A DNA stretch of 32,000 bases from Candidatus Omnitrophota bacterium (GTDB lineage: Bacteria; Omnitrophota; Gorgyraeia; Zapsychrales; JANLHA01), in assembly GCA_963662715.1 (NCBI GenBank), contig OY759724.1, forward strand, positions 840,001 through 872,000, written 5' to 3'. Positions 4,901 to 25,782 of this stretch are shown here, piece after piece (position 1 is the stretch's first letter; each line of letters opens with the position of its first letter). The notes below the pieces were generated by a model. That model searched no databases. It was not told where the DNA came from and saw nothing but the letters and a program-made list of their open reading frames with translations. Position numbers and translations under genes: made by a program.

Positions 4901-5691
4901 TCATTCACTTCCCGCTCAATAACGGGCACAAGGACATCCCGGACAATCTGGGACGACAAGGCATTGAGTTCTTCGGCCTGCGCTTTGGTCTGGGACGGAT
5001 CACGGCCCAGGACTTCAGACTCAAAATTCTGATCAAGCGCGATAAGATCTTCCTCAAGCATGACCTTCAAATGACTTTCCGCGATATACGCGCTGTTTTC
5101 ATTTTCATAAATAACAGCCTTGTCCGGGATAATCCAGATTTTGTTAAACGTCTGGATCGGAATCTCAATCGTACCGTATTGCTCAATGGCCTCTTGATAG
5201 GTTTTATTCCAAAATTCCCGTCCGGCGGAAGTGTCAGGGTTCATGATAGAAGCAGACAATTTCTTCAAAACATAATCCTGTTCAAGCATTTCGCGGCCCA
5301 TAGCCGTCAGGCTTAAAGTTCCCGGGATGATCTTTTCCTTCTCGTAGGGAGAAAGATTCACCCAAATATCTTCCTCAGGGATTGTTAAAGACGCCAGGAA
5401 ATATTTCGCAAATGTATCAATCTGCTCCTTGGGGACATCCTCCTCTGCCTTAAGATCCTGGCCCGGCAAAATAATGAAATTGACGTTCAGGGGATTATCA
5501 GGATAAATCATAATGCCTTCTAAAAGCGTAGGAATGAAACGGTGATTTAAATCCACGATGAGGCTGTGTTCGGAGGCCACGCCCTGATAGTTCAGCACCT
5601 GGGCATAAGAAAAAGTTGAAGTCAAAAGAAAGCAAGGAATAAAAAGAAAGATCAGCAGATTGTGTGTCATTTTCCGCAAAACAAAAACCAC
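1975..5691 (-). CDS. giant secreted mosaic protein B: signal peptide + conserved N module + TreT/GT4-like glycosyltransferase core + GGIxxN C-terminal module
   Basis: 1238-aa ORF. The GTG start gives MVFVLRK plus a hydrophobic core and SYA|Q (an alternative ATG is at 5670). Residues ~45-353 are about 50% identical by eye to the N module of 10666..14385 (KYFLASLTIPEEDIWVNLSPYEKE, EVNEGRHFARLRQIYH, PRKYFSGG). Residues ~558-1020 carry GT-B/trehalose-synthase-like motifs (VWMINSSIAGGVGDI, VIVNDPQPAAL, NSRVDPLKG, LTGPVASDNPGW, EEGFGLAATA). The C-terminus carries VSSPL...PGGILFN. Confidence 0.85.
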   Translation of the reverse strand: MVFVLRKMTHNLLIFLFIPCFLLTSTFSYAQVLNYQGVASEHSLIVDLNHRFIPTLLEGIMIYPDNPLNVNFIILPGQDLKAEEDVPKEQIDTFAKYFLASLTIPEEDIWVNLSPYEKEKIIPGTLSLTAMGREMLEQDYVLKKLSASIMNPDTSAGREFWNKTYQEAIEQYGTIEIPIQTFNKIWIIPDKAVIYENENSAYIAESHLKVMLEEDLIALDQNFESEVLGRDPSQTKAQAEELNALSSQIVRDVLVPVIEREVNEGRHFARLRQIYHAMILATWYKQALKENFLKKVYVNQEKIAGIALSETEYKEKIYNQYFETLRQGVVNFIREEVDPVSEEIVPRKYFSGGITPAKNLAVILDVKSSPIVASQVARKFRDPVANPNGRLPNIAFLEFVSVGDGSFRQFWDAVDEMGISGPYLQQIRLTFNETSQRDRTKIINAALKLPEALRNPEENLDFIVWAVNTMTLPVSSLEAYLKANRPQDWETLLTRFRERAVQLELGRVSRLSRNINLTRETDGIKGYQEDALMKAPDYTEKIAELKALTREYVPQEGEPLKVWMINSSIAGGVGDIISAFIAHAKAFPENLNMEWFKYDLSGEEGTPILHYLFHGKEEGLIHTPNMKDQFIWTTMRNAAAMIKMIRAQNIPAPHYVIVNDPQPAALYRILQRQFPEFYESYFKDTVFTWFGHIPFDARSDEAKSAVQFLSYFVDTHANSAYHDYLINGKESKILPVTHPVVANLNSIDIFGFYNIGLNQQTVDAVMDHLRIDRTAEDLFYTHNSRVDPLKGKTEALEAFERMYDKGENAGQRIRIILTGPVASDNPGWEGIEDLKSRVDRINAKLNTRFGTGDLEYAVLRLFFATNPEQDIKAEFEGRRTPSNIEREAEKLQQWQQTQDRLRGMGLDPDLMVPQLDPDGKMQQALGEMSVKVNVLTPTDIHQIMLNALMTLPISNLSNSLEEGFGLAATANKLHGKSRRIVDADTQRETVHPGPVSILGDTGGLGRQLDPDGHGTMGFLVGIRDHDRQKGVTVDDLIRRDQARREQGVDEVFLDIAEIREQVQAYMDAHDGRPMPYEEFMIAETEYYMTKILTLYMQRQNGDRTFEAMGEKSYQDVLNNFTTIAHIIRVLQWMKEPAPGTAVSSPLRGAAETDVMAREPLSLTETEALAGQSDTPGGILFNANLLHLERRYVPSPVPGMGPEYSVDIPEPENMQGLAPHLINVSTLPLEHIPVLLNLH

Positions 5692-5877: not shown

Positions 5878-7299
5878 TTATTTTTTATAAATATCCTTCC
5901 TTGAAATAAGCTGGTCTGTTATCCGGAGCCACTCAACCAATAATTTTTTGTACTGGGAATCATGGAGGATTTCATTGAAACGGTTATTATCCACAACGTT
6001 AACCGCATCAATATAATCATTGAGAGTGACTTTGCCGAACGAATAGTTTTCGGTTTCATCTTCCAGAATGGCCTTGGCCAGCCCGATCTTTTCCTGGGCA
6101 AGGCTTAAGAGTTCCTGTTCGCTGTTCAGCTGGACGGACAGGTCTTTGATATCTTTAAAAAGCTGAAAATGTGTTCCGGCATTGGTCAGTTTGGTCTGTT
6201 CCATAGTGATTTTTGATCTTTCATATTCGGCCTGATCAACCTGGTCCCCCAAAGGCCACTCCATCGCCACGGCGGCATAGACCATATTATCTTCATCCTT
6301 TATCGCAAAATCCTTTCCCCGGACATTGTAACCAAGAAGCAAGTCTATGGACGGCAGAAGATCGTCGGCCTCTTCATCAACCTGCAGCCGGCTTTTTTCC
6401 TCCAGAAGATTAAGGACTTTATACGTGCGGCTGGCCTCTTTAAACCTCCCGTAGTCTGCGTCAAAATCAACCCGGACTTCGCGGTAAAGACCCGGCCGTT
6501 GAGGGGTCAGCTTTTCACTCTCTTTATAACGGACGGCCTTCTCAATAAAATTAAGCGCCTTCCCGTATTCTTCTTCAAGTTCAACGAGCTTTTCCTTCTT
6601 CGCTAAAACCTGCAGATGCACTTTATTGACATCAATCGGCAGCGCGATATTATTCTGCTGACGCTCTTTAATGTTCTCCAGCAGCCTTAGATTCTCCCGG
6701 TAAGACGATTCCCCGATCTTTAAGTTCTCATAGGCTTCATACCAATCATAGTAGCCTACAATAATGACGGCCAAATAATCCTCATAAGCCTCGACGATCT
6801 GGTGTCTGGCGATATCAATTTCCAGGCCGATGATTTTATCCTTTAATTTCGTTGATTTTCCGAAAGCATTCCGGGCGATAGGCTGCGAAATCTCCAAGGT
6901 AAATTCCGATGTGTTGTCCGTCGAAGTATAGGAAGGGGTCGTCTCATATTCGGCCTTAAGGTTTGTGCCGGAAAACGGAAAAAGTTTGCTCAGCGACACA
7001 TTCCCTTCCGGCTCCTCCCTGTCCTGGTCCAGGATGAAATCGTACTGCGTTTTAACTTCCAGGACCAAATCCCCGGCCGGAAGCTTTAAATCCTTTTCAT
7101 AGTGAAGCGTAAGCTCTTCAATGAGGATCCGTTCGAATTCCGTGTCGTTGCCGACAGCGCGGGTAACGAACTCCTGCAGAGGGAAGATTCTGGTTCCGCT
7201 CTCCTGTTCCGGCTTGCTTTCTCCGCTCACCGCCCACCCCGGGAAAGACAGGGTGACTGTCATAAAAAGAAAAAGAATAAAATATATCTTATGTCGCAT
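5878..7299 (-). CDS. outer membrane efflux protein (TolC-like OMF)
   Basis: 473 aa. It has a signal peptide (MRHKIYFILFLFMTVTLSFPGWA) and the long helical/coiled regions typical of the OMF family. It starts 6 nt after the RND gene stop. Confidence 0.7.
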   Translation of the reverse strand: MRHKIYFILFLFMTVTLSFPGWAVSGESKPEQESGTRIFPLQEFVTRAVGNDTEFERILIEELTLHYEKDLKLPAGDLVLEVKTQYDFILDQDREEPEGNVSLSKLFPFSGTNLKAEYETTPSYTSTDNTSEFTLEISQPIARNAFGKSTKLKDKIIGLEIDIARHQIVEAYEDYLAVIIVGYYDWYEAYENLKIGESSYRENLRLLENIKERQQNNIALPIDVNKVHLQVLAKKEKLVELEEEYGKALNFIEKAVRYKESEKLTPQRPGLYREVRVDFDADYGRFKEASRTYKVLNLLEEKSRLQVDEEADDLLPSIDLLLGYNVRGKDFAIKDEDNMVYAAVAMEWPLGDQVDQAEYERSKITMEQTKLTNAGTHFQLFKDIKDLSVQLNSEQELLSLAQEKIGLAKAILEDETENYSFGKVTLNDYIDAVNVVDNNRFNEILHDSQYKKLLVEWLRITDQLISRKDIYKK

Positions 7300-7305: not shown

Positions 7306-10300
7306 TCATCCTTTGATACCGAATTTACATTCAAAATCCTTCAAAAAAGAATAAATACAGGGGATAAGAATCAATGTAATCAGTGTCCCAAAAATAAGCC
7401 CCCAGGCTAATGCCAGCATCATCTCGGCCAGCATGGCGTCATGACCGGCAAACCCGTAAGCTGTCGGCAAAACACCGGCCACCGTCGTCAGGGTGGTCAA
7501 GACGACCGCCCTGAGCCGCGTCTTAGCAATACCGGCTATCTGCTGATGAGACTGTTTCTTCCCTGCCCCCGGATCATATTCCCTGTCGAGCTTGACCAGC
7601 ATAATGATGGAGTCGTTCACAACCACCCCGGCTAACCCCAAAGCTCCGATAGCCGCAAAAAACCCGAATAAAACTTTCCCGTGCAGCCAGAAAGCCAGAA
7701 CGATACCGACAACGCCGAAAGGGATCGCCAGCATAATGATCAAAGGCCGCAGCAATGAATTAAAAAGCACCGCCAGCACAATATAGATCAATAAAACAAC
7801 CAGCAAGACGGCGCTTATCAGGTCCGCCCGGGATTCTCTCGTGCTTTCCACTTCCCCGGCAAAAGACAATGTGGTCGTCGGATACCGGCTGAGAATTTCC
7901 GGGAAGATGTTTTCCTCGAAATCCTCGGCAATATCAAGCGGGGTATATCCCTTTTTCTTCTTCAGATCCGCGTCGATGATCGTGGTCCGCTTGAGGTCTT
8001 CCCGGGTTATGGAATTAGGAGAACGCACTTTTTCCACATGCACCACGTCCCGCAAAGGCACCAGGTAATTCCCTTTATTTTCGACAGGAAGGTTCAGGAC
8101 TTTCTCTATATCATCTTTGGCCTCATCAACAATCGTAAAACGCACCTGGATATCTTCATCGACCCCGGTAAACTCATAAAGGACGCTGCCTTCGAGGGCT
8201 GCCCGGAATGTCGAGGCAATATCCACGGGATTGATCGAAAGGCGCTTGACCTTATCCCTGTTGATGTCGATCCGGTACTCATCAATATACATGTCCCCGT
8301 CCACCTCGATATTCTCCAGGGCCGGGTGTTCCTTCATTTTCTTCATGAGTTCTTCAACAATCCGCAGCCGTAAAGCATCGTCATTCTGCTGAACCATGAG
8401 TTCAAGCGCGCTGCCCGAATCCTGCCCCCACCGGCTTTTTCTAAAATTCAATTTCTGAAATCCCGAAAAAGATTCCGTGCCCTTCTTTAACTCTTTGACA
8501 ATCTGATCCGCCGATTTCTTCCGTCTCTCCTTGGGCAGGATCTCAAACAGTATCCGGAAATTGTTTTCCTCGACAGCCCCGCCCCGCCTGCTTCTGGCAA
8601 TATCCGTCCTGATGCCGACCTTCTCTTTGGCAAAATTCTTCAGGATAAATTCCTCAATCTTCCGTGTTTCTTCGGCTGTCTCAAAACGCTTCGCCCCCGC
8701 AGGGACTTCTCCGGAAATAACGATGTCCCGCGTCTCCTCGTGCGGGAACATCACAAACTTGAACCGGTGCCTGATCAAGAATCCGGAGAGCACCAGCAGC
8801 GCCACAAAAAACATTAAGACAACTCCCTTATAAGAAAGGATTCTCTGGATGAAACGGCCGTACCGGTCTTCAATCTCTTCAAACCAATGACTCTGGCGGC
8901 TGGCTTTAGGGACAGCTTTGTTTCTCCCGTTTAACTTGTTCAGGAAAGGGATCCTCAAGTCCATGTGCCCGGGAAGAATAAAAATGGACTCAAGGAAACT
9001 CGCCCCCAGAACAAGGAATATGATCGTCGGAATAGGCTGAATGAATTTCCCGAAATGCCCTTCAAAAAAATAAAGCGGGATGAAAGCCACACACGTTGTA
9101 ATAATGCTGGCTAAAACAGGCAACATCACATAGGCCGTGCCTTTCACGACCGCTTCTCTTCGCGCCATCCCCTGATTCGTCAGCCGCGTGATATTCTCGG
9201 CAACGACAATCGCATCATCGACAATGATCCCCATGACAATGATGATGGCCGCGAGCGTCATCCCGTTTATGGTGTGTCCCATTAAAGGGGCGAGGATAGC
9301 CGTAAAACAAAGCGTGAAAGGTATCCCCATGGCCACCCACAGCCCCGCCCGTCTGTTAAGAAAAACGAACAGGGTGATGACAATCAGGACGAACCCGATC
9401 GTTCCGTTTAACGCAATAAGGGACAGCCTGTTGCGGATATCAATGGATTCGTCATCCAGGAGCACCAGTTTGAGCGGAGTATCTTTAAGATTATTCTCCC
9501 GGAAGCGGTCCACAACTTTATTGACGCTGTCAAGAGCTTCAATAATTCCGTACGAACTGTTTTTGACAACATTTAAAATGACCGCCTGCCGGCCGTTGAC
9601 TTTTTGGATCTCTTTGCTTTTCTCAAAACCTTCGATAATATCAGCGACCTCCCCCAGCCGGACAACCTGCCCGTCAAACCCGCCCTGAATGATCAGATCC
9701 TTCAGTTCCTGCGGGGTATCCAATTCAGAAACCAGCGTGACCTGGGGTTCTTCCCGGGTTTCGATGGTCCCGGCGGGTTTTCGGACATGGTTATTTTTAA
9801 TCTCCTCCATGACCGTGTTGAACGGGATCTCATATTTAAGAAGTTTCTGCGGCTGAACTTTTATCTGCAGCTCTTCCTGCAGATAACCGCGCCGGTTAAC
9901 ACTATTGACATGGGAAAGATTCAGGAGCTGATTTTCAAGGGCAAAAGCATATTTCTGCAGGTCGCGCCTTTGTTCCGCATTCAAGATGTGGATATCATCA
10001 TTATAAAGAGCGATATCAATAATAGCCTTTTTGCTTGTTTTAAAGACCCGGATGTTGGGGTCATCAACGATCTCATCCGGCAGATCCACATCCAGGACAG
10101 TGTTCCTGATTTCCGTCACCACCTCATCTATATTGGGATAATCCTGCTCGATCTCTATCGAAACGCTGGACGTCCCTACACTTGAGGTGCTGGTGACTTT
10201 ATGCACCCCGTCCAGCCCCCGGACAGCTTCCTCTATGGGCTTGCTGACAAAATATTCGACATCTTCGGCCGGAGCCCCTTGATAGTTCACAGAAACCCTG

Positions 10301-10440
10301 ACCCTGTCAAACGTGATGTCCGGCAGTTCCTCCTTGCTGGTGTTATTCCAGGAAAATATCCCGCAGATAAAGATTGAAACAAATATAAGGTTGGTGAGAA
10401 GATGTCTTTTAGCGAAGTAAGCTATAAGTTTTTCAAGCAT
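7306..10440 (-). CDS. RND efflux transporter permease (AcrB/HAE1-like)
   Basis: 1044 aa. The N-terminus (MLEKLIAYFAKRHLLTNLIFVSIFICGIFSW), the two large periplasmic loops and the 12-TM layout are characteristic of AcrB-family pumps. Confidence 0.9.
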   Translation of the reverse strand: MLEKLIAYFAKRHLLTNLIFVSIFICGIFSWNNTSKEELPDITFDRVRVSVNYQGAPAEDVEYFVSKPIEEAVRGLDGVHKVTSTSSVGTSSVSIEIEQDYPNIDEVVTEIRNTVLDVDLPDEIVDDPNIRVFKTSKKAIIDIALYNDDIHILNAEQRRDLQKYAFALENQLLNLSHVNSVNRRGYLQEELQIKVQPQKLLKYEIPFNTVMEEIKNNHVRKPAGTIETREEPQVTLVSELDTPQELKDLIIQGGFDGQVVRLGEVADIIEGFEKSKEIQKVNGRQAVILNVVKNSSYGIIEALDSVNKVVDRFRENNLKDTPLKLVLLDDESIDIRNRLSLIALNGTIGFVLIVITLFVFLNRRAGLWVAMGIPFTLCFTAILAPLMGHTINGMTLAAIIIVMGIIVDDAIVVAENITRLTNQGMARREAVVKGTAYVMLPVLASIITTCVAFIPLYFFEGHFGKFIQPIPTIIFLVLGASFLESIFILPGHMDLRIPFLNKLNGRNKAVPKASRQSHWFEEIEDRYGRFIQRILSYKGVVLMFFVALLVLSGFLIRHRFKFVMFPHEETRDIVISGEVPAGAKRFETAEETRKIEEFILKNFAKEKVGIRTDIARSRRGGAVEENNFRILFEILPKERRKKSADQIVKELKKGTESFSGFQKLNFRKSRWGQDSGSALELMVQQNDDALRLRIVEELMKKMKEHPALENIEVDGDMYIDEYRIDINRDKVKRLSINPVDIASTFRAALEGSVLYEFTGVDEDIQVRFTIVDEAKDDIEKVLNLPVENKGNYLVPLRDVVHVEKVRSPNSITREDLKRTTIIDADLKKKKGYTPLDIAEDFEENIFPEILSRYPTTTLSFAGEVESTRESRADLISAVLLVVLLIYIVLAVLFNSLLRPLIIMLAIPFGVVGIVLAFWLHGKVLFGFFAAIGALGLAGVVVNDSIIMLVKLDREYDPGAGKKQSHQQIAGIAKTRLRAVVLTTLTTVAGVLPTAYGFAGHDAMLAEMMLALAWGLIFGTLITLILIPCIYSFLKDFECKFGIKG

Positions 10441-10625: not shown

Positions 10626-10666
10626 AAGAAAAACACAGGGATCTTTGTCCCTCCCGGGAACCCTGT
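10626..10666 (-). terminator. putative intrinsic terminator directly after giant gene A
   Basis: The minus strand reads ACAGGG-(20 nt, with an inner AGGGA/TCCCT stem)-CCCTGT followed by GTTTTTCTT. It overlaps the stop codon. Confidence 0.4.
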
Positions 10667-13600
10667 TAATTCGTATGCCCCACAAAAGACATGGAAGCAT
10701 CGACCGGTGCGATATGAACAATGACCGGGACAAGACCTTCGATATGGATATTTTCAACCGGCTGCTGCTGAAAAGACAACGGAATGCCCCGGCCGTCACG
10801 TTTGATCTGCATGTCCAGCAAGTCCAGGTTCAAATCAATACCACCGGGGGCCGAATAAGCCGTCATGTCATCAACTTTTTCAAGGGGAGAAGAAACAAGT
10901 GCTGTGCCCGCTTCTTCCGGAAGAAGCAGCGCCGCCTCATTGATCACCGTGACCGGATAGGACAAGGCCGTTCCTGTCAGGGCGTGCTGGATGAGTTCAC
11001 CCAAATCCTTCGGCGTGCCTTCATCACGCTGAATAGAGATCGCAATATCAACCCCATGCTCCCTGACTTGGTCTACGTCGATCTCATCCTGCGTCATCAA
11101 CACGACTCTTATGCCGACAGACTCCTTTCTTAACGAAGCGATCTGGGCTTTTAGCTCTTCGGTGACATGCCCCCGGAAAACAGCCACCCCTGTTCCGGCA
11201 TCCACATCTCCGACGCTTTTCTGCACGCGGGAAAAGATTTCCCCTAACAGACTAACCGATCTTTCAATAAACTCGGGATGATCATCCGCATAAACGATAT
11301 TTTTCTCCGCTGCTCCCATGACCGCATCCATCTCATTGACAAATTCGTCCGGAGTTATTCCCAGATGACTGGCCCTGTTTTCCACATATTCGGCGGAAAC
11401 ATTACTCGCATTGGCGATTCTGGTCTTGGCCTCGGCGATATCCGCACTTTTCAATCTGGTCCTCAAAATAAAGCTGGCGCCGTCCGGGGTTACCAGCAGG
11501 GTGTTAACCGTTGCCGTGTTCGTTTCTTTGTCAAAATTGATGCGTTTCATGAGCCTGGCCATGGTCGGGCCAAACTGATGAGGAGAAGCCCCGGTCACGG
11601 CACTCATCGCAACCGCCCCTTTCCCGGTGAATACCGGGCGCCGGCCCATATAATCAGCCTCAGAATACCCGTTGGCGGAAAAGCTCTGCAGTTCTTTATC
11701 CGTGTAGTCTTTGGCTACTTCGGCGGCGACCAGATCTGCCGTTGCCGTTTTCGAAACGTTCTCGCTGACAAACTGCCCGTTGGGAACAAGGCCCGCGACG
11801 ACTTCCGCCATGGAAGCCTCGGCAGAACCGCTGCGTTTAAAAGTCACCATATGATACCCGTCCAAATCCAGCCCCAGCGAAGACACTTCCCTGGCCGCAT
11901 AATCGCCATCCCCGGGCGTATAAAGCCGCAGCCCCGGATATTTTTCCTGCAGCTTCACCGCGTCGGCAATATCCAAACGGTTTCTGTGATCTCCGGAATC
12001 ATCTACGCCTTTCTGATACCCCTTGGCCCGCGGCCCGAGCATGACGACAAGAGTATGGTTAATATAATTATCAACGTACTCGTCGAATGCGGCAGTATTT
12101 TCCTCCAGCCCCTGGGCCAAAGCATTCGACCGGGCAATTTTAGGAAGAGCCACAGAAGGCAGATCAAGGTAATTCACACCGGCTTCATCCGGGGCATAAA
12201 AACTGATCCCGGCTATACGGGAATTATCATCCACCGGGTTGCGCGGGGCATCATGAATATCGGCATATTCATCACTCACTAAAGCCGCCAGGGCCCAGCT
12301 GTCTTTAATATTCTGCACCAAAGCGTTGGTATGCTCTAAGCCGTCATCGGCGGAGAATTCGATGTCAACACCCAGGCGTCTTAAACGGACAATTTCCTCG
12401 TCACGTTCGACTTTCGACCGGAACCACGCCTCATTAAAAACCGCTTCCAGTTGTCCGACCGTTGCCCCGTCGAATTCTCCGGATACTTTGCTGCGGATAG
12501 CATCGAAATCCTTTTTAAAATGCCCCTGCCCTCTGTCATTAACGTAACCGAACCATTCTTTGTCCATAAGCGTGTTAATGATATTGTCCACAACATCAAC
12601 GTCAATCCCTTGCTTGATGAAATCGTCTCTGGTGATCAAGCCAAAATCCCGAAAAAGTTTGCCGTCTGTTTCATTATACCCGGAATAATAAATACGGTTG
12701 AGTTCAATAAAGAATGACGCGTCCCGTTTCCCTTCGGAAGCCCAGGTCACCACGGCTTTATCGGGATACAGCTGGACATAAAGTTTACGGCTTTCATGGG
12801 TCGCGTCAACCGCGTTTCCGTCCCCTATTTCTTTACCGTCCTTTCCCTGGCCGGCAAAAAGGATAGACGCCAGGGCCTGAGCGACAGAGGTGGCATAAAC
12901 GGAGTTGACCATCGGGTCACTTAAGATCGTCTGAATATCGACATCCTCTCTGCCCTCACTCAGCTGTAAGGCGGTGACCTCGGCATTCGGGAAAAATCCG
13001 TGTCGCGTAATAAACTGCATCATGTCCTGATTAATGGCGATGATGTCCGTTCCCCTTTCCGCCATCAAATCCTGAATAGGAGATGATGCTGTTTTAACCC
13101 CTTTCACGGGGTAGGAAAATGTCCGGGCCATTTCTGTCTCAGAGGCGGCCGGGCCAACGTCAAGCGCACGGAAGGTGACAAGACGGTCTTTTCCGATCGG
13201 AGAAGAAGCTTTTTCCAGGACATGCCGCGGCTGGGTCAGAGGGGATCCGCTTCGCCGGGAACGGTTGACTCTTTGCGTAATCGTCACCCCTCCGGCCATA
13301 GAGGAAAAACCGCCGGAGAAATATTTCCGGGGAGTCATTTTCTGAGTATCGGGATCGATATCTTCCTTAATATAATTGTAGACGCCTTTTTGAAAAGCAG
13401 CCAGATACTGGCTGTATATCTTTTTCTTTATATCGCGGTCCTCCAGATCAATGCCTTTAATTTTGTTCTGGTCAACATAAAGCTGTCCCAGCAAAGTCTC
13501 TTTTAAGGCCCCCTTGTACCAGGCTGCCAATATCAGAGAATGATACACCTGTCTTAATCTGGCAAAATTCTGTCCTTCGTTCACTTCCTTCTCAATTTCC

Positions 13601-14385
13601 GGCAGAATGACTTCCCGTAAGATATCGGACCCTAACTTATTAACGTCTTTAACTTGTTCTTCCGTCATTTTCGCGGCCACCGGGCCGTTCTCTGCCGCGC
13701 TTTTAGATAAAGTCAAGTAATCTTCCTCCAGCATAACCTTAAGATGACTTTCGATAATAAAGACGCTGCCGTTGTATTCCCACACCTCGGCTTTGTCCGG
13801 GACAATCCACACTTTATTAAACGTATTAACGGGGATATTGGCTGTCCCGAGAATATCCTCGGCTTTTTTATAAATTTTCTGCCAAAACCTTTCGCCCAAG
13901 GCTTCTTCCGGATATAGCAAAGACGCCGTCAGCTGTTTTAATAAATAATCCTGGGCCAGAAGATCCCGCCCCATTTCCGTAACGCCGAAGTCATCGGGAA
14001 CAATACGCTCTTTTTCATAAGGAGATAAATTTACCCACAAATCTTTTTCCGGAACAGTGAGAGAAGCCAGAAAATATTTGATCAGGGTGTTGGCTTCTTC
14101 CTGAAACGCTCCCCCGTCCAATGCGGCATCCCCGGTATCAATAATAAAATCAAACTCCAAAGGATTCTCCGGATGCAGCGTCATCCCCCGCACAATGGTC
14201 GGAGTATATCCAGCACTCTTTTGGACCATGCTCCCCGGAGCAGGCAAATCCAGGACCGTCTGCACAGAGCGCGCATAAACGGTCTGCGGACTCAGAATGA
14301 AGGCTGCCAGAAACGGGACAAGGACAAACACGGATATAACTCTTTGGAAATATTTAAGTTGTGATTTAGGGCCGATAATGGTCAT
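10666..14385 (-). CDS. giant secreted mosaic protein A: signal peptide + conserved N module + GlpX (class II FBPase)-like core with insertions + GGIDLN C-terminal module
   Basis: I chose the ATG at 14385 because of the GGAGAaattcac SD; the ORF track uses the TTG at 14415. The N-terminus is MTIIGPKSQLKYFQR plus a hydrophobic core and VYA|RS. The N module is paralogous to gene B. Core segments resemble E. coli GlpX: AGQGKDGKEIGDGNAVDA vs GRGDKNTADGAAVNA; LVVMLGPRAKG...GLRLYTPGDGDYAA vs VTILAKPRHD...GVRVFAIPDGDVAA. The C-terminus carries VSSPLEK...PGGIDLNLDLLDMQIKRDGRGIPL...IEGLVPVIVHIAPV. Confidence 0.85.
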   Translation of the reverse strand: MTIIGPKSQLKYFQRVISVFVLVPFLAAFILSPQTVYARSVQTVLDLPAPGSMVQKSAGYTPTIVRGMTLHPENPLEFDFIIDTGDAALDGGAFQEEANTLIKYFLASLTVPEKDLWVNLSPYEKERIVPDDFGVTEMGRDLLAQDYLLKQLTASLLYPEEALGERFWQKIYKKAEDILGTANIPVNTFNKVWIVPDKAEVWEYNGSVFIIESHLKVMLEEDYLTLSKSAAENGPVAAKMTEEQVKDVNKLGSDILREVILPEIEKEVNEGQNFARLRQVYHSLILAAWYKGALKETLLGQLYVDQNKIKGIDLEDRDIKKKIYSQYLAAFQKGVYNYIKEDIDPDTQKMTPRKYFSGGFSSMAGGVTITQRVNRSRRSGSPLTQPRHVLEKASSPIGKDRLVTFRALDVGPAASETEMARTFSYPVKGVKTASSPIQDLMAERGTDIIAINQDMMQFITRHGFFPNAEVTALQLSEGREDVDIQTILSDPMVNSVYATSVAQALASILFAGQGKDGKEIGDGNAVDATHESRKLYVQLYPDKAVVTWASEGKRDASFFIELNRIYYSGYNETDGKLFRDFGLITRDDFIKQGIDVDVVDNIINTLMDKEWFGYVNDRGQGHFKKDFDAIRSKVSGEFDGATVGQLEAVFNEAWFRSKVERDEEIVRLRRLGVDIEFSADDGLEHTNALVQNIKDSWALAALVSDEYADIHDAPRNPVDDNSRIAGISFYAPDEAGVNYLDLPSVALPKIARSNALAQGLEENTAAFDEYVDNYINHTLVVMLGPRAKGYQKGVDDSGDHRNRLDIADAVKLQEKYPGLRLYTPGDGDYAAREVSSLGLDLDGYHMVTFKRSGSAEASMAEVVAGLVPNGQFVSENVSKTATADLVAAEVAKDYTDKELQSFSANGYSEADYMGRRPVFTGKGAVAMSAVTGASPHQFGPTMARLMKRINFDKETNTATVNTLLVTPDGASFILRTRLKSADIAEAKTRIANASNVSAEYVENRASHLGITPDEFVNEMDAVMGAAEKNIVYADDHPEFIERSVSLLGEIFSRVQKSVGDVDAGTGVAVFRGHVTEELKAQIASLRKESVGIRVVLMTQDEIDVDQVREHGVDIAISIQRDEGTPKDLGELIQHALTGTALSYPVTVINEAALLLPEEAGTALVSSPLEKVDDMTAYSAPGGIDLNLDLLDMQIKRDGRGIPLSFQQQPVENIHIEGLVPVIVHIAPVDASMSFVGHTN

Positions 14386-14554
14386 GTGAATTTCTCCGGT
14401 TATTTGAGTTAACAATATATAAAACTTCTTGTCTCAAAGATATCAAAGATAGTCCGAGAAAAGAGGATTACTCCAAGAAATATGAAAACTTGGGCATTAA
14501 AAAGGTGAGGGTTTGAAATACTAAGGACAGGGGTTACTAACTAATATATCTAAT

Positions 14555-14613: not shown

Positions 14614-16059
14614 CTAAACATTTTTAATAAATGACCGGGTAAAACAATCCGCCAGCCTTCCTTTTTTTAGTTCTCCCAACAGAGCCGCGCCAAGAAGAAC
14701 AGGTATGGACAAAACAAACAAAATCAGCTCCGAAGCCCTGAAAAACCGCACTTCAAAAATATTCTTTTTCAATAATTTGATAAACCGGCCGGGCGTATAA
14801 AAAGCATAATGCATCCTTCGCCCTATCTTTTTCAGGGCCGCGTGACTGTATTTATCAGAATAGAGCTCTCCTCTGTCTGTAATATGATATCCCGGAGTTT
14901 TTTCCGCCAGTTCTCTTAAAGACGAAAACTTCTCTATCCTTAATTTATTATATGTCACCCCATCAACGCCTATTTCCTTGGCAAATTCAGGGATATAAAG
15001 CATCTCCTCCTCTGTTTCCCCGATATTGCCAAAAATAAAATAACCGTGAAAGTAAATAGGATATTGAGTCAGCACCTTAAAGGCCTCCCTGATCTTACGG
15101 GAATTAAAACCTTTATTAAACTGTTCAAGGACCCAATCATGCGGAGACTCGATCCCCACCAAAAGAGCCTTAAATCCGGCTTTAACCATTTTATCCAGCA
15201 AACGCGGATATCCGGCGATGTCGATTCTCGTCTGGGCGATGAACCTTTTTTTCAATTTGCGTGCGATAATTTCATCGCAGAGTTTCTCGGCCCTCTTTTT
15301 ATTGGCAAAGACTTCATCATCCCCGAACAAAATCACTCCGGCGGGAATACTTTCAATCTCATCCACGACAGATTTGATACTGCGCTCGGAGTATTGCCGC
15401 TTCTGTCCTAAAGGATTCAAGTTGAATGTGCAAAATTTACAATTGAACGGACATCCTCTCGCGGTTAAAACGGAATCGAACGAGAGGTTGGCCACATTAA
15501 TCCCATTCAAGGCAAGACGGTATTTCGACCGTCTTAAGCTGCGGTCCGGGGGCGGGATTTGATCTGCCGCAACAAATGGTCTGAAACCATTATGAATGAG
15601 TTCCCCTTGCTCCCGATAGGATATCCCCAATATGTCCTTACGCGGGACACCGCTTAATATGTCCTTAATCGTCATTTCCCCTTCACCCCGGACAACGATA
15701 TCAACGGTGTCGCACTGCTCCAGCAGTTCATCGGCACGCTCTGTCGCTTTATATCCTCCGATGACCAAAAGAATATCCTTCGGCAGTTTGTTGAGCAAAT
15801 CGCAAATCTGCTGGAACTGCCGGTCCCACGTGATACTCACTCCGATAAAATCAATCTTTTCCTGTCTGATAAATTCCAGCAAATTATTAACATCGCATAA
15901 TTCTTTTTCCTGCCTTAAATCAATGACCGTCACTTTATGCATATACTCCTTAGCGCTCGTAGCGACGTATTCAAGGCCAACGGGCGGATACATCCGCATG
16001 GCACTGGTAGAACTGCTTTCCGTATAAGGGTTAAGAAATAGTCCGTGCTGATATTTCAT
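14614..16059 (-). CDS. B12-binding-domain radical SAM protein
   Basis: 481 aa. The N-terminus has a Rossmann-like B12-binding region (LLVIGGYKATERADELL, DIVVRGEGE), followed by the radical-SAM motif CPFNCKFC. A hydrophobic helix sits at the C-terminus. Confidence 0.8.
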   Translation of the reverse strand: MKYQHGLFLNPYTESSSTSAMRMYPPVGLEYVATSAKEYMHKVTVIDLRQEKELCDVNNLLEFIRQEKIDFIGVSITWDRQFQQICDLLNKLPKDILLVIGGYKATERADELLEQCDTVDIVVRGEGEMTIKDILSGVPRKDILGISYREQGELIHNGFRPFVAADQIPPPDRSLRRSKYRLALNGINVANLSFDSVLTARGCPFNCKFCTFNLNPLGQKRQYSERSIKSVVDEIESIPAGVILFGDDEVFANKKRAEKLCDEIIARKLKKRFIAQTRIDIAGYPRLLDKMVKAGFKALLVGIESPHDWVLEQFNKGFNSRKIREAFKVLTQYPIYFHGYFIFGNIGETEEEMLYIPEFAKEIGVDGVTYNKLRIEKFSSLRELAEKTPGYHITDRGELYSDKYSHAALKKIGRRMHYAFYTPGRFIKLLKKNIFEVRFFRASELILFVLSIPVLLGAALLGELKKGRLADCFTRSFIKNV

Positions 16060-16247
16060 TTTGTCACATATCTTTCCAAGGCTTATGGGGCCTTATTTAA
16101 ATACCAAAACAAATTCCGTCTTTTTAATGGATTGATTCTAACAGAAAGTGGGACAAAAAGGGGAAAAGTTTCCGGTTAAGAGATTATGGCTGCCGAACGT
16201 AATCTGCTGGTACGGCAGGATGACACATCTATAACACACTGTTAAAG

Positions 16248-16652
16248 TCAAGGTTGCAACAAATATTCTGCGGCAGCTTTTAAAAATGTCATGACCGCCA
16301 GGACGGCGCAGTGATTAAAATCAGCCGGCAATCCGTCAAGCCGGTCAAGAATCATTTTGGGCGAGATAGCCAAAGCCTCTTCCAGTCTTTTTCCCGAAAC
16401 AAATTGTGCCGCAACGGAACCGCAGGCACGCGTGGAAACACAGCCATCCGTATAAAAACTTGCCTGCTCAATAACCCCCTCTTTAATATAAAGATAAAAT
16501 TCCATGGAATCCCCGCAGGCCCCTTTCATAAAAGCTGAACTCGTAAAATCGTTCATTCTGGTATAGAGAGGAGGATTCCGGGCCAAATCCACAATCGCCC
16601 GGGGATATACGGACACATCCCTCTCAACAGGCGATTCATTAAAATCGTTCAT
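16248..16652 (-). CDS. NifU/IscU-like Fe-S cluster scaffold (N-terminal domain type)
   Basis: 134 aa. The conserved Cys residues are present in GACGDSMEF, TDGCVSTRACGS and NHCAVLA. An AAGGAG SD is present. Confidence 0.8.
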   Translation of the reverse strand: MNDFNESPVERDVSVYPRAIVDLARNPPLYTRMNDFTSSAFMKGACGDSMEFYLYIKEGVIEQASFYTDGCVSTRACGSVAAQFVSGKRLEEALAISPKMILDRLDGLPADFNHCAVLAVMTFLKAAAEYLLQP

Positions 16653-16805
16653 CCCCGGCTCCTTGTTTTATTGAAATATCATTGGCTCCCGGGAATTTGC
16701 TCTAATCATCTTTCCCGGGCCTTTATAAGAGATAGCATATTGCCTCTGACTAGGCAAGTCTTTAATGCACGAAATGTTTCTACAGCGGCAGTAATTGCGG
16801 CAGTC

Positions 16806-17294
16806 TTATTTTTGCGGATTTTTTTTTTGCTTCATTTCAAAATCAATTCTCTTTAAAAAGGGCAAATAATCTATAATAAGCTTCCCCTCCAGGTGGTCGA
16901 TCTCATGCTGAAGCACCGTCGCCATAAAGTCCTTGGCCTTGATCTCCTGAACCGCCCCCCTTTCATTGAGCCCTTTGACTATTATTTCATAACTGCGCAG
17001 GACTTTCACCTGCATATCCGGCACACTCAAACACCCTTCTTCTAACATACTAGTCCCTTTTTTATGAACTATCTCGGGATTGGCTAAAAAGAGCGCCCCT
17101 TCCCCTATATCAACAACAATCATCTGCTCGGCAATACCAACCTGCGGGGCGGCTAATCCTACACCTTTAAAATAATGCATTGTCGACAACATCTGCCGGG
17201 AAAGAGTCTGCTCCCTTTCTGTGATCCCCTTAACCGGCTGACATTTCATCCGCAAAACTTCCTCGGGATAGGTCTTGATCTGCAAAAGATTCAT
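16806..17294 (-). CDS. def: peptide deformylase
   Basis: 162 aa with all three signature motifs: GVGLAAPQVG, EGCLSVP and HEIDHLEG. Its ATG overlaps the stop of the upstream radical SAM gene by 4 nt. Confidence 0.93.
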   Translation of the reverse strand: MNLLQIKTYPEEVLRMKCQPVKGITEREQTLSRQMLSTMHYFKGVGLAAPQVGIAEQMIVVDIGEGALFLANPEIVHKKGTSMLEEGCLSVPDMQVKVLRSYEIIVKGLNERGAVQEIKAKDFMATVLQHEIDHLEGKLIIDYLPFLKRIDFEMKQKKNPQK

Positions 17295-18070
17295 AACACT
17301 TTGCCTCTTCTCTTTAAAGTATCACCGTCACTCAACGGGGCAACAGTCTTCTTCTCTGCTTTATATACAAAAACAGTGCTGACGCCACGGAAATAAATCC
17401 CCACCCTATCCAGTTCAGCCTCGGATAAAGGGTTGACCCGGCAGGGCCTCAGCGGTGTGTTGATCTGGACTTCGTCCGGACGAATGGACTTGACAATCTG
17501 CGCGATATCTTCCGCACAGGCTTTATTCTCTCCGATAAACATAATCTGCAAGGCCAATTTTCCCTGATAGACATTCCTGAACGATTTGAGACCGGAGATA
17601 ATATCCGCAAGCTTCACTGTCTTAAAAGGCGCATTGACCGAAGAAAAAACGTCTTGTGTGGGAGCATCAAGTTTCGCGACCACCAGATCCGCTGAGGACA
17701 GATCCTCCTGCACGTCTTTTCTCGGCAATAAAGAGGAATTCGTTATAACGGCGACCTTCTCTTTTCTGGTCTGTTTGACAGCTCTGATCATCTCTCCCAG
17801 GTTAGCGGCCAGGGTCGGTTCCCCGGCTCCGGAAAATGTAACGGTATCTATCGTCAGAGGAGGCAGGGAATTCAACTCTTTAATAATATCCTCACAATCG
17901 ATAAAATGATGTCTTTCGTCCGTTAAAAGCCCGGTCTTTCCGACCTGGCAGTAGATACAGTCATAACTGCAGACCTTTCTTCCTTTGGAGACAGGATCTA
18001 TCCCTAACGAACGCCCCAGCCGCCAGGACGGTACGGGGCCGTAAATATATCTAAATTTTTTGACAGTCAT
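17291..18070 (-). CDS. radical SAM protein (COG0731-like, YGPVPS(W/R)RLGRSLG N-terminus)
   Basis: 259 aa. It carries CSYDCIYC (CxxxCxxC) and the SAM-binding-like motif FSGAGEPT. It overlaps the 3' end of the Mrp gene by 20 nt. Confidence 0.8.
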
Positions 18071-18890
18071 GACCTAAATGTTTGATGATCTTTTCAACGA
18101 TCTTGCTCATGACACAGGATGACGGATCGTTTCTCGTTAACTGAACATAAGGCTGCCCCGTGTCGCTTTGCCTGACAATTTGGGGATTTACAGGGATCTG
18201 CCCTAAAAAAGGAACGTTCAGATCCTCAGCAGCTTCCCTCCCGCCCCCTTCTCCGAATAATTCAATCGGTTTCTGGCAATGCGGGCAGGCAAATCCGCTC
18301 ATATTTTCAATGATACCGACCAGCGGAACACCTATGGACTTTGCAAAAGCCACGCTCTTGCGGGAATCTAAAATGGCGACATCCTGAGGCGTCGTCACAA
18401 TAACGGCTCCGCTGATATCCGGGATGAGCTGGCAGACACTCAAAGGTTCATCCCCTGTTCCCGGAGGAGAATCAATGACCAGATAATCCAGAGACCCCCA
18501 GTTCACATCACTCAAAAATTGTTTGATCGTGGCCATCTTAAGAGGCCCCCGCCAGATAACGGGCTGATCCTGATGCTCCAGCAGCATCGCCATGCTGACC
18601 GCTTTAAGATTAGGCAGAACCGCCAAAGCCTCTATGCCTTTTTCCGACCCTGCCAGCCTGACATCCTCAACCCCCAGCATTTTGGCGATATTCGGGCCGT
18701 GCATATCCACGTCCAAAATACCGACCTGCTTCCCCCGCAGAGCGAGTTCATAAGCGAGGTTAACGGCGACCGTGGTCTTTCCGACCCCGCCTTTACCGCT
18801 CATGACAATAAGTTTATGCCGTATTTTCTGCAGCCGTTCTTGAAGGCGGCGGTCCTGCAGAATTTTTTCCTGTTCTTCAGCCTTTTGCAT
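18051..18890 (-). CDS. Mrp/NBP35 (ApbC-like) Fe-S cluster carrier ATPase
   Basis: 279 aa. It has the deviant Walker A motif [10 protein letters not shown], the CPHC motif and DSPPGTGD. A good SD (AAGGAAAGGAA) is present. Confidence 0.88.
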
Positions 18891-18984
18891 GGTTCCTTTC
18901 CTTTTTTCAAATATGTTTTCGCCCTAAAGCTGCGGCAACGTCAGTTCTAAAGATATACTCCAGTCTTTACCGGGATAATCCGCG

Positions 18985-19845
18985 TTATTGGCTCTGCTGT
19001 TTTATGGTTTCCCATATGGCCGTCACGTCTTTTTTAGCCCTGCTGTCACCGCCCTCAATAATCGTTTTTCCCCGCACCATGGCATGCACAACGGCTTTAT
19101 CAAAACCGATCTTTCCGACAACCTCTATCCCCTGGCTTTTACAGGCCTGCAGAATCAGGCCGGACATATCCGGATTTAAATCATATTTATTAACGACCAC
19201 CTTAGGCGGAATGCCGAAATGTCTGGCCACTTCGATAACTCTCAAAGCATCATGCCAGCCGGACAAAGTAGGCTCAGTGACCACCAGAGCAAAATCCACT
19301 CCGGATAACGAAGCGATAACCGGACAGCCTATCCCCGGAGACCCGTCAATGATAATCCAATCGCAATTTTTCTGTTCGGCCAGCTCTTTGGCTTTCTTCC
19401 TGACCAGGCTCACCAGCTTCCCGGAATTTTCTTCCGCGATTCCCAATTTTGCATGGACCATCGGTCCGAAACGTGACTCCGACACAAACCATTCCCCGGC
19501 GATATTCTCCTTCATCTCTATCGCCCCGACAGGACAGACATGATGACAAAATGCGCACCCCTCACAGGAAACAGGATCAATTTGGAAATCCTTGTCGATA
19601 GCGTCAAAACGGCATATCTCCCGGCACTGCCCGCATTGAGCGCAGAGGGCCTTGTCCAGGAAAGCCGTAACTCCGCTTTTAAACTCCTGTCTCTGAAGGA
19701 TATCCGGCTGCAGCAATAAATGCAGGTCCGCGGCATCAACGTCGCAATCCACCATAACTTTATTATCGGCGAGCGCCGCCAAACTCGCCGTAAGGACCGT
19801 TTTGCCTGTGCCGCCTTTTCCGCTGATCACAACAATTTGTTTCAT
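18985..19845 (-). CDS. MinD/ParA-type P-loop ATPase with 2x[4Fe-4S] ferredoxin insert
   Basis: I chose the internal start MKQIVVISGKGGTGKT because of the AGGAACGAGG SD. It carries CAQCGQCREICRFDAI and CEGCAFCHHVCPVGAI. The longer ORF start at 19905 would overlap the upstream gene. Confidence 0.85.
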   Translation of the reverse strand: MKQIVVISGKGGTGKTVLTASLAALADNKVMVDCDVDAADLHLLLQPDILQRQEFKSGVTAFLDKALCAQCGQCREICRFDAIDKDFQIDPVSCEGCAFCHHVCPVGAIEMKENIAGEWFVSESRFGPMVHAKLGIAEENSGKLVSLVRKKAKELAEQKNCDWIIIDGSPGIGCPVIASLSGVDFALVVTEPTLSGWHDALRVIEVARHFGIPPKVVVNKYDLNPDMSGLILQACKSQGIEVVGKIGFDKAVVHAMVRGKTIIEGGDSRAKKDVTAIWETIKQQSQ

Positions 19846-19867
19846 AAGACCTCGTTCCTGAAAGACA

Positions 19868-21217: not shown

Positions 21218-21226
21218 ACTCTCCCC

Positions 21227-22066: not shown

Positions 22067-22071
22067 ACCGT

Positions 22072-22683
22072 TTAACAGCCCCTTTGACAGAAAATCAAGA
22101 GCTCCTGGCAATCTGTGCCATAGACCTTGACTTGATAATTTTTATCCGATAAATATTTTTCCACATCCTTTAAGTGACATTGTCCGCGCGAATGGTGCCG
22201 GCCTTCGCTGGCATGAATCCGGCCGATAAGCTCAAAACCTTTCTGGTTAAAATCACTTAAAATAATTTTTCCTTTCCGGGAAACCACCCGAATCAATTCA
22301 TCAACAACTTTAAAAGGATGATCCAGGTGATGAATAAAATTGATGGCAAACACGATGTCAAAACTCTCGTCAGCGAACTGAAGATGTTCCGCGTCGCCCA
22401 TGACAAAGCTTACCTGAGACTCCAGCCCGGCATACTCAATATTCATACGGGCAAACCTCTGCTCCTCGTCAGAGATGTCCACTGTTGTCAAATGATGACC
22501 CTTTTGAGCCAAGGCAAGCGTAAAATATCCTTTGCCGGTCCCGAGTTCTAATATCCGTCCTTCAATCGGTTGAGATTTTTCAATAATAAAATCTCTTTCC
22601 CGGATGACGTCATATCCGAATTCCCGGAACAGCCGGATCCGCTCCTGATAAATTTTATGATTCTCTGTCATCTGTTCTTTCAT
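22072..22683 (-). CDS. class I SAM-dependent methyltransferase
   Basis: 203 aa. Motif I is ILELGTGKGYF, and a post-I acidic residue and FDIVFAINFIHHL are present. Its ATG overlaps the upstream stop (ATGA). Confidence 0.8.
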   Translation of the reverse strand: MKEQMTENHKIYQERIRLFREFGYDVIRERDFIIEKSQPIEGRILELGTGKGYFTLALAQKGHHLTTVDISDEEQRFARMNIEYAGLESQVSFVMGDAEHLQFADESFDIVFAINFIHHLDHPFKVVDELIRVVSRKGKIILSDFNQKGFELIGRIHASEGRHHSRGQCHLKDVEKYLSDKNYQVKVYGTDCQELLIFCQRGC

Positions 22684-22868: not shown

Positions 22869-22880
22869 GAGACACCCCTT

Positions 22881-23249: not shown

Positions 23250-23254
23250 TCCCG

Positions 23255-23662: not shown

Positions 23663-23692
23663 AATAAACCTCCTGTCAAAAATCCCAAAGGC

Positions 23693-23723: not shown

Positions 23724-23749
23724 ATAAGTTATAATCGTTCATTTTCACC

Positions 23750-24070: not shown

Positions 24071-24118
24071 TTGTATCACCTCCTTTGACTGAATTCCGCC
24101 TTTGCGGCAAGATCCATA

Positions 24119-25777: not shown

Positions 25778-25782
25778 TCCTA

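Follow-up and report, generated by a model that had tools for sequence, protein, structure and literature searches.

Omnitrophota are abundant, uncultivated, ultra-small bacteria that presumably rely on other microbes or prey on them. In the substrates of type Vb secretion systems (T5bSS), e.g. FhaB/CdiA, a conserved two-partner secretion (TPS) domain of ~250-300 aa stands behind a Sec signal peptide, and these TpsA proteins carry no obligatory conserved C-terminal tail. In Omnitrophota, giant and long proteins have been described in two preprints (bioRxiv 10.1101/2023.11.21.568195 and 10.64898/2026.06.07.730766), the accessible text of which reports metabolic Pfam domains behind signal peptides, describes N-terminal regions that 'lack identifiable domains', and sets the protein classes by size (>10-100 kaa), transmembrane (TM) content and Pfam content. 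Here, we analyse a stretch of 32,000 nucleotides from a Candidatus Omnitrophota bacterium (assembly GCA_963662715.1, contig OY759724.1, positions 840,001 to 872,000 of the forward strand; hereafter the window), in which two genes, A and B, encode members of a protein family whose unit is composed of signal peptide, module, linker, cargo, linker and tail. The module at the N-terminus and the tail at the C-terminus are conserved, and the cargo that they bracket is almost never the same in two members.

Module, tail and variable cargo

All protein-coding genes annotated here in the window, including A and B with the features given below, lie on the minus strand. Gene A (10666..14385) encodes a full family member, which is 1239 aa long when read from the ATG at 14385. 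Its mechanical ORF (10666..14415, 1249 codons) extends up to a TTG at 14415; the ATG is likely the true start because a database copy with 100% identity to protein A (P0121, on a 3.36-Mb contig) measures 1239 aa. Gene B, the second family member (1975..5670), encodes 1231 aa from its probable start at ATG 5670, in an ORF that reaches up to a GTG at 5691. The module occupies residues 50-373 of A (13297..14268; envelope of the family hidden Markov model (HMM), E 1.3e-162), ending at PRKYFSGG (13309..13323), and residues 35-357 of B (4621..5589; E 4.2e-139), with YFSGG at 4633..4647. By BLASTP, A20-371 and B5-355 align with 159/354 identical residues (45%), 5 gaps and an E of 9e-99, and beyond the module segment no alignment between the two ~1240-aa proteins is found at E<1. 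A preliminary description of this DNA had placed a common module of ~310 aa at residues 55-370 of A (13306..14253) and 45-353 of B; these positions are right, those in A falling inside the HMM envelope, and the five blocks that it quoted (KYFLASLT[VI]PE.D.WVNLSPYEKE.I.P, TFNK[VI]WI[VI]PDKA, ESHLKVMLEED, E[KR]EVNEG..FARLRQ.YH..IL[AT]WYK.ALKE and PRKYFSGG) all stand in the alignment as written.

The module is a new domain family without detectable homologue or fold match in the databases searched (PDB and BFVD for the fold). Protein A matches no Pfam-A family at E<=1 and the matches of B lie in its cargo only; the module finds nothing in NCBIfam at E<=0.1 and no match in PHROGs or PADLOC at E<=0.01, and a profile of 51 members has no match at E<=10 among 177,635 PDB sequences. 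The preliminary statement that the module cannot be assigned to any named family therefore holds, a match to an annotated domain having been sought and not found. In the AlphaFold2 (AF2) model built from the 51-member alignment (mean pLDDT 74.7, pTM 0.71; core residues 10-190 and 205-265 mostly >80), three long beta-hairpins are packed with about eight helices, two of which span 26-30 residues, and a second model, within a 549-aa minimal member, reproduces this fold. Fold comparison, as proposed in the preliminary description, returned no Foldseek match in the PDB (two models; best E 0.049 / 0.078) or in BFVD (first model; best E 0.03), with TM-scores <0.25 throughout except for one BFVD entry (0.31, E 0.11).

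Across 164 complete members, pairwise module identity amounts to 60.3% (SD 4.1). The modules of A and B, encoded 8 kb apart, form the 45% pair mentioned above, vs 66% between A and the module of another metagenome-assembled genome (MAG), and the modules of neighbouring paralogues are 59.8% identical vs 57.3% for all pairs / different genomes. Concerted evolution or gene conversion as the source of the conservation was rejected, as neighbouring paralogues are no closer than random pairs; the conservation is hence the result of strong purifying selection, acting on a domain that is ancient and has been duplicated repeatedly. Invariant positions comprise many aromatic residues (five Trp) and the polar residues N80, S82, E85, R101, D107, K111, E228, N230, R239 and Q240 (module numbering), with WVNLSPYE as a highly conserved loop; no Cys or His is invariant.

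The family is large. A word-indexed homologue search yielded 1,403 clusters, the top 120 at 53-64% identity, with named hits that are nearly all Candidatus Omnitrophica/Omnitrophota and two under other phylum labels, apparently through mis-binning. A HMMER scan of 1.84 billion representatives detected 8,034 clusters at E<=1e-3, 6,281 of them at E<=1e-30, i.e. unnamed proteins with the named ones nearly all from Omnitrophota, in agreement with the preliminary statement that the motifs recur in hypothetical proteins of uncultivated lineages. In GTDB species genomes, at least 580 confirmed loci carry the module, and the best 80 of these, i.e. those most similar to A, were taken as the locus set, which together with the window makes 81 sources. 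These 80 loci come from MAGs titled Omnitrophota/Omnitrophica, some third-party annotation (TPA) or other records being called 'Planctomycetales' or 'bacterium', apparently as generic labels, and several loci fall within one genome in some cases (at least six in OFTM38, at least five in SMAG_U7936). As judged from these matches, the family is apparently Omnitrophota-specific. A phage or mobile origin was rejected, only 3 of 2.9 million viral contigs (IMG/VR) containing the module.

The homologue search favoured query-like lengths (316-565 aa for the 323-aa module query, 59-112 aa for the tail query), and the architecture was therefore read from the loci and the exhaustive representative search; real proteins are mostly 600-5,000 aa. 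The complete family ORFs in the 80 loci, mostly 700-2,300 aa, nearly all close with a conserved tail of ~55-60 residues, with the consensus GGIDLNPxxLDLQIKRDGxGVPLPxxQQPxxxMxIxGFxPVIINIxPVxNLPxLLG. A second flavour reads GGIDLTPANMNLQTQ..GEIKFHxDPAMLxQLQNAPGFxPVIINIQP, and in the tail sequences of the 80 loci both flavours apparently occur within single genomes. No family match was obtained for the tail. In A it covers residues 1188-1249 (10669..10854; PGGIDLNLDLLDMQIKRDGRGIPLSFQQQPVENIHIEGLVPVIVHIAPV...; tail HMM E 5e-26), and B ends with a divergent copy (1978..2175; PGGILFNANLLHLE...GLAPHLINVSTLP; E 4.7e-13).

N-module and tail are strictly coupled. When the two HMMs were run over every six-frame ORF of the window and of the 80 loci, 97 ORFs with the module and 65 with the tail were found, 53 of which carry both. 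The module-only ORFs all reach the end of the locus or an assembly gap, except for one of 431 aa in L018 that is apparently truncated or decayed, and the tail-only ORFs, in turn, all begin at the edge of a locus or at a gap. Among the matches of the representative search that were listed, the module starts within the first ~75 residues in 147 further representatives, once at 156; the shortest of these proteins, a fragment, has 376 aa and the longest 4,969 aa, non-fragment members measuring roughly 550-5,000 aa. The tail is present in 109 of these 147 independent representatives, never in more than one copy and in each case 1-59 residues away from the C-terminus. The remaining 38 are probably 3'-truncated calls at contig ends, with 22 of the 38 under 850 aa. 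The identities of module and tail correlate across the 164 members (r=0.47), a value reached by none of 500 Mantel permutations. In the AF2 model of the 549-aa minimal member, the tail appears as coil (pLDDT 38-60), linkers and tail together being unstructured (pLDDT 30-60), and it was not docked on the module in cis, in an alignment that pairs both parts in 4 rows only.

Two further observations concern the tail. The only counter-example to the coupling that was found is a locus (L084, 7137..8219) where a free-standing response-regulator ORF and then a tail-only ORF (P0299) lie directly downstream of a complete family gene; P0299 is probably a decayed or split family member, and this split copy adjoins several toxin-antitoxin genes (HicAB, RelE). 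In some proteins, 20-60 acidic residues extend beyond the tail and end in ...[IL]S.L[NR], e.g. ISLLN, VSALN or LSLLNYN (L001, L002, L003, L012, L069, L075, P0037).

Between module and tail lies a cargo of 117-4,518 residues (median ~1,080), and only 28 of 13,366 pairs among the 164 members (0.2%) have homologous cargo. Even closely related modules head different proteins, a common cargo being found in 10 of the 130 pairs with modules >=70% identical. In A, linker and variable cargo (10855..13296, ~810 aa) contain no domain recognisable against Pfam, NCBIfam or PDB, and the cargo has five partial homologues among 5.8 billion clusters. In B (linker and cargo at 2176..4620), a TreT-like GT-B glycosyltransferase is located at about 3202..3999: it matches TreT of NCBIfam at 1.4e-10, with a bit score that falls far short of the curated cutoff, and trehalose synthase in the PDB (2x6q, 2.2e-8), and gives a weak mid-protein TreT/GT20 signal in Pfam (TreT_GT1 5.6e-5, below the curated cutoff).

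A Pfam scan of 85 members left most cargo without a match, and the families that were matched are of cytoplasmic type. One of them is a full-length phosphoglycerate kinase (PGK; 1e-107) accompanied by a UDPGP-like domain in L001. Other families include Glu/Leu/Phe/Val dehydrogenase, alanine dehydrogenase, PPDK_N, a pyridoxal phosphate (PLP) enzyme, phosphoglucomutase, UDPGP, RmlD/epimerase, family 2 glycosyltransferase (GT2) and CofD, as well as methyltransferases, NUDIX, PP2C, peptidase M3, guanylate kinase, DnaJ, HAD and HEAT repeats. Signalling is represented by response-regulator receivers (4 members) and HATPase_c, and radical SAM plus B12-binding domains occur in 2 members with an intact CxxxCxxC. 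No typical extracellular domain is present among the cargo families listed, i.e. the 25 most frequent of the first batch's 44 and all 18 of the second.

The cargo boundaries are marked by recurrent short motifs. An invariant GG is found at both (...PRKYFSGG and GGIDLN), and SSP[ILV] or [DNEG]x[AS]M lies within 30 residues upstream of the tail in 64 of 157 proteins (expected ~7%, about 6-fold enriched) and, likewise enriched, within 80 residues after the module in 80 of 157. The SSP and DxAM types are almost mutually exclusive at the same positions. Both A and B belong to the SSP type: in A, SSPI occurs twice after the module (13195..13206 and 13075..13086) and SSPL before the tail (10882..10893), and in B, SSPI is found at 4579..4590 and SSPL at 2254..2265. 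The preliminary description had the module ending just before SSPI, which is correct in order and approximate in distance, the first SSPI lying 35 (A) and 15 residues (B) past YFSGG. The boundary motifs and the GG pairs may be processing or recognition sites.

Evidence for export

The obligatory tail, the polymorphic cargo of cytoplasmic type and a near-total absence of cysteine were not mentioned in the preliminary description, which had correctly placed the module directly behind a signal peptide in both proteins. The putative Sec-type signal peptide of A, read from the sequence, covers ORF residues 11-48 (14272..14385; MTIIGPKSQLKYFQRVISVFVLVPFLAAFILSPQTVYA followed by RS, ...VYA↓R, the arrow marking the cleavage point), and that of B residues 8-30 (5602..5670; MTHNLLIFLFIPCFLLTSTFSYA followed by Q, ...SYA↓Q). 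In the 207 N-complete members, a strongly hydrophobic 10-mer is present in 197, K/R before it in 199 and a small-x-small pattern after it in 188, all three features coinciding in 174. Most often the cleavage site reads A-x-A↓Q (typically AYA↓Q) and precedes the LPxPG with which the module begins by six residues. Simple heuristics served to call both signal peptides and TM segments, a TM-like segment being a Kyte-Doolittle 19-mer of >=1.6. By this measure 120 of 164 cargos have no TM-like segment, so that in most members the membrane would not separate cargo from module. As a general rule, a TM helix behind the module that places the cargo in the cytoplasm was rejected, because it applies to ~12% of members only.

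Cysteine is almost excluded from the entire protein. It makes up 0.02% of the module, 0.05% of the cargo (111 of 210,663 residues) and 0.04% of the tail, vs 1.10% in neighbouring ORFs of the same loci, and 114 of 164 cargos have no cysteine at all. Protein A has none in 1239 aa; B has a single one, inside the signal peptide, and none in the ~1208 aa of the mature protein. At a background of 1.1%, zero cysteines in 1,200 residues has a probability of about 2e-6. Neighbours with signal-peptide-like N-termini are also poorer in cysteine (0.84% vs 1.34%), and within the window the TolC-like outer-membrane protein has none, vs 1-4.4% in the cytoplasmic neighbours. Besides Cys, His is depleted (0.61x) and Glu enriched (1.38x) in the 164 members.

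Low cysteine content is typical of passengers that cross the outer membrane unfolded, i.e. autotransporters, TpsA and RTX proteins. Cysteine exclusion is, moreover, a documented signature of exported proteins in bacteria avoiding oxidative misfolding (PMC2823432). Cysteines have evidently been removed from the enzyme-like cargo unless catalysis requires them, as in radical SAM. The ~20-fold exclusion, enzyme cargo included, indicates true export, and by the combined criteria of signal peptide, topology and cysteine content the family is predicted to be exported.

Genomic setting and candidate mechanisms

Family genes frequently adjoin one another. In 23 of the 81 sources, two or three of them form a tandem array that takes up no more than ~13 kb, without exception on one strand and often with gaps <100 bp; three in a row are found e.g. 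in L057, L035 and L041. No neighbour gene cluster recurs in more than 10 of the 81 loci, and there is no conserved dedicated neighbour. A dedicated neighbouring partner gene was searched for and none was found, the most frequent neighbour, a response regulator with an EAL domain (RR-EAL; cyclic di-GMP (c-di-GMP) phosphodiesterase), occurring in 10 loci only, followed by methyltransferase-GT2 (6), histidine kinase (5) and a resistance-nodulation-division (RND) permease (3, including the window); the annotated top clusters also include ABC-F, SerRS and GT3. Tandem arrays without a dedicated neighbour fit a common machinery encoded elsewhere. We note that the RR-EAL neighbour stands on the same strand as the family gene, e.g. 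in L022 (1489..2703), and that PilZ genes are reported to adjoin Omnitrophota giant genes by West-Roberts et al.

In the window, an AcrB-type RND permease (7306..10440) and a TolC-like outer-membrane efflux protein (OEP; 5878..7299) lie between A and B, with no adjacent gene for a membrane-fusion protein (MFP; HlyD/AcrA). That the module is the missing MFP of this pair was considered and rejected, as there is no HlyD match in Pfam or NCBIfam and an RND permease is near 3 of 81 sources. For the same scarcity, the position of the RND/OEP pair between A and B is probably coincidental. Upstream of A, a long same-strand run of Fe-S/metal-related genes (14614..31914) encodes a B12-radical SAM protein, NifU, a deformylase, a radical SAM protein, Mrp/NUBPL, two CbiA-ferredoxin ATPases, a pyridine-nucleotide disulfide oxidoreductase, NifX-like, DUF5320, ARMT1-like and DUF364 proteins, Fur and ferritin, and then a PAS-LuxR regulator; the rest of the window is devoted to Fe-S, metal-homeostasis and housekeeping functions. 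One ORF (24119..25873, 584 aa) has no Pfam match.

Based on these data, we propose that the module is a shared extracytoplasmic handling domain, i.e. the handle by which a cargo family with two signals is secreted or anchored, an interpretation that we hold to be about as likely as not. The protein would be threaded unfolded through Sec and its signal peptide cut at AxA↓Q, and the N-module, once out of the cytoplasm, would adopt a compact alpha/beta fold. It would then serve as a common handle, by which one shared, unlinked machinery could recognise, retain or anchor every member, and the intrinsically unstructured tail would provide a second, C-terminal sorting or docking signal. The cargo, kept translocation-competent through the lack of disulfides, would be presented at the cell surface or set free, and might be directed at a host or prey cell. 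In a more concrete form of the proposal, an outer-membrane route would engage the unfolded, disulfide-free chain via the tail after Sec export, and the folded module would either remain as an anchor or plug, or act as a recognition domain like the TPS domain.

Several points weigh against this mechanism. The recognisable cargo needs cytoplasmic cofactors (ATP, NAD(P)H, SAM, Fe-S) and should not work in the periplasm or on the surface, and Fe-S cofactors are not deliverable by Sec export. No transporter, sortase or peptidase partner is present among the annotated most frequent neighbour clusters of the 81 loci, and no structural analogue in PDB or BFVD, as compared by Foldseek, backs a trafficking role. 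The numerous polar invariant residues would also fit an enzyme or a ligand-binding site, the signal-peptide and TM predictors are crude, and in ~12% of members a TM-like segment follows the module at a distance of up to 150 residues. This last group suggests, on predicted topology, a subset in which the module is outside and the cargo inside. TM- or signal-peptide-like segments behind the module are seen e.g. in P0136, P0167, P0188, P0219, L021, L026 and L058.

Cofactor-dependent enzymes with every mark of export form a paradox, which suggests either that they are delivered into another cell or that the envelope has a biology of its own. A far-reaching proposal, which we put forward tentatively and as less likely than not, is that of a phylum-wide two-signal delivery system, in which an N-module of novel fold and a C-terminal peptide bracket hundreds to thousands of cysteine-purged 'cytoplasmic' enzymes and signalling domains (PGK, dehydrogenases, radical SAM, kinases, response regulators) that would be Sec-exported and then delivered into or onto a host or prey to be active there, the module being a translocation or docking device. 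If delivery is true, these ultra-small bacteria would outsource part of a metabolism or regulatory toolkit to another cell.

The alternative that best survives follows the logic of AB-toxins and polymorphic effectors. Here, the exported N-module would insert into or cross the membrane of a target cell and carry unfolded, cysteine-free cargo into the target cytoplasm, with the tail as receptor-binding or secretion signal. It alone reconciles export with cofactor-dependent cargo, including radical SAM domains with intact cluster motifs, since ATP, NAD, SAM and Fe-S assembly are present in a target cytoplasm. The high cargo turnover is as in effector arsenals, a host-dependent or predatory life is predicted for Omnitrophota (PMC10066038; 10.1101/2023.11.21.568195), and the cargo Pfams (HEAT, HATPase_c, PPDK_N, NUDIX, HAD, radical SAM) overlap those of the Archaeovorin giant proteins implicated in predation, as far as the accessible preprint text describes them. 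However, the module displays no hydrophobic helical hairpin or other hallmark of a pore-former, alpha-pore-forming toxins appear only among insignificant Foldseek matches (E>0.1, TM<0.2), and no injection apparatus is linked in cis among the annotated frequent neighbour clusters of the 81 loci. A cargo of 1,000-4,500 aa would moreover be very large for self-translocation, and housekeeping enzymes such as PGK would be odd effectors. We consider the effector explanation rather unlikely.

Alternatively, the disordered tail of one member could bind the N-module of another, head to tail, by cohesin/dockerin or donor-strand logic. Extracytoplasmic enzyme chains or lattices would result, comparable to the giant multi-domain proteins of the phylum but held together non-covalently. 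Strict coupling of one module with one tail per protein fits such docking, as do the co-divergence of module and tail with apparently more than one tail class within a genome, the same-strand tandem arrays, and a tail that is predicted to be unstructured alone and to contain beta-prone hydrophobic stretches; a uniform conservation of ~60% is expected if members must stay mutually compatible. Co-divergence is, however, equally explained by common descent, the cofactor-dependent cargo is left unexplained, and AF2 left the tail of the minimal member undocked in cis, a test that is nearly blind with 4 paired alignment rows. We regard head-to-tail docking as unlikely.

A role inside the polypeptide itself is improbable to a higher degree. 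The N-module could be an enzyme or an intramolecular chaperone or processing domain, which e.g. releases or matures the cargo at the SSP[ILV] / DxAM or GG boundaries, and the many invariant polar residues, the conserved WVNLSPYE loop, the enrichment of SSPx or DxAM beside both cargo boundaries and the GG at both are compatible with this. Nevertheless, the module has no invariant Cys/His, no similarity to a peptidase or enzyme family and no fold match, and processing alone would not need a coupled C-terminal tail.

We consider it very unlikely that the family is a tether at the cytoplasmic face, in which the hydrophobic N-terminus would be an uncleaved anchor and the enzymes would be scaffolded at the membrane inside the producer. 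Cytoplasmic-type cargo is what such a tether predicts, and in the 12% subset the TM-like segment right after the module would place the cargo in the cytoplasm. Yet basic residues before the hydrophobic core and AxA↓Q after it predict an N-in/C-out orientation and cleavage, most cargos lack a TM-like segment, and a 20-fold cysteine exclusion over the whole protein, enzyme domains included, is unexpected for cytoplasmic proteins of these genomes. Finally, many database copies are contig-end fragments, but an artefact, in which repeated or mobile DNA or chimeric assemblies create the apparent shared N-terminus, can practically be dismissed, given that contigs of 0.1-3.4 Mb from many studies carry intact ORFs that run from module through cargo to tail, that identity stands at ~60% at the protein level without gene conversion, and that viral contigs yielded 3 matches only.

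Comparison with known systems

With >8,000 clusters at 50% identity and several to many genes per genome, the family is among the largest conserved features of the phylum, and it is invisible to annotation. The two HMMs, for module and tail, provide a handle to enumerate a whole class of exported proteins, and a compact domain that tolerates essentially any cargo is of possible interest for protein-display engineering. The best-supported mechanism for this architecture is that of conserved trafficking or sorting elements on polymorphic exported proteins, in a bracketed-cargo form that is unreported in the literature searched; no description of module and tail was found there. Module, tail and cysteine exclusion are not described in the accessible parts of the two preprints on giant and long proteins (10.1101/2023.11.21.568195; 10.64898/2026.06.07.730766), nor are N-terminal, C-terminal or fusion features mentioned in Seymour et al. 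Resemblance to TPS, T9SS and LapA proteins, as compared below, would be functional only, with no homology.

In the T5bSS substrates, as in the present family, a Sec signal peptide and a conserved N-terminal domain head large, cysteine-poor, polymorphic passengers. The module differs from the TPS domain in that it has no Haemagg_act (PF05860) match and no NPNL/NPNGI motifs in its consensus, and in that its AF2 fold is alpha/beta with long helices, whereas the TPS domain is a right-handed beta-helix. Among the annotated most frequent neighbour clusters of the 81 loci, no TpsB (Omp85-type) gene is found; one may lie at a distant locus. Substrates of the type IX secretion system (T9SS) that carry its C-terminal domain (CTD) are alike in their Sec signal peptide, diverse enzyme cargo, conserved C-terminal element of ~60-100 aa and many paralogues per genome. 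In contrast to these, A and B have no Por_Secre_tail/TIGR04183 match and the tail is predicted to be unstructured, whereas the T9SS CTD is a beta-sandwich; the T9SS belongs to Bacteroidota, with cargo that lacks a conserved N-terminal domain, and the present family to Omnitrophota.

RTX adhesins of the LapA/MpIBP type, with a retention module and a type I secretion system (T1SS) signal, likewise bracket a long cysteine-poor passenger by a folded N-module and a C-terminal signal, with motifs near the boundary of the N-module. The setting, too, is LapA-like, with c-di-GMP neighbours (RR-EAL, 10 of 81 loci) and a TolC-like OEP between A and B. Unlike T1SS substrates, however, the family has a Sec signal peptide; it has no RTX repeats or HemolysinCabind match and no ABC/MFP partner, and RND/OEP genes are near in 3 of 81 loci. 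The reuse of one module on many catalytic cargos and the fast cargo turnover are shared with cellulosomal dockerin/cohesin and with the trafficking domains of polymorphic toxins (LXG, PAAR/Rhs). The family is set apart from all of these by the absence of a sequence match, by cargo that is not toxin- or glycoside-hydrolase-like and by conserved elements at both ends; Dockerin_1/Cohesin, in particular, have no match in A or B and are not among the listed cargo families.

The Archaeovorins (bioRxiv 10.1101/2023.11.21.568195) and the 'long proteins' (bioRxiv 10.64898/2026.06.07.730766) belong to the same phylum and, in the accessible text of these sources, overlap with the family in cargo Pfams (HEAT, HATPase_c, PPDK_N, NUDIX, HAD, radical SAM, glycosyltransferases, PGM, response regulators). 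The difference lies in size and topology: the giants exceed about 10-30 kaa and contain many TM segments, whereas A and B measure 1239 and 1231 aa, members range over 549-4,969 aa, and 120 of 164 cargos are without a TM-like segment. In conclusion, the bracket of module and tail explains part of the puzzling long proteins of Omnitrophota that combine a signal peptide with metabolic Pfam domains.

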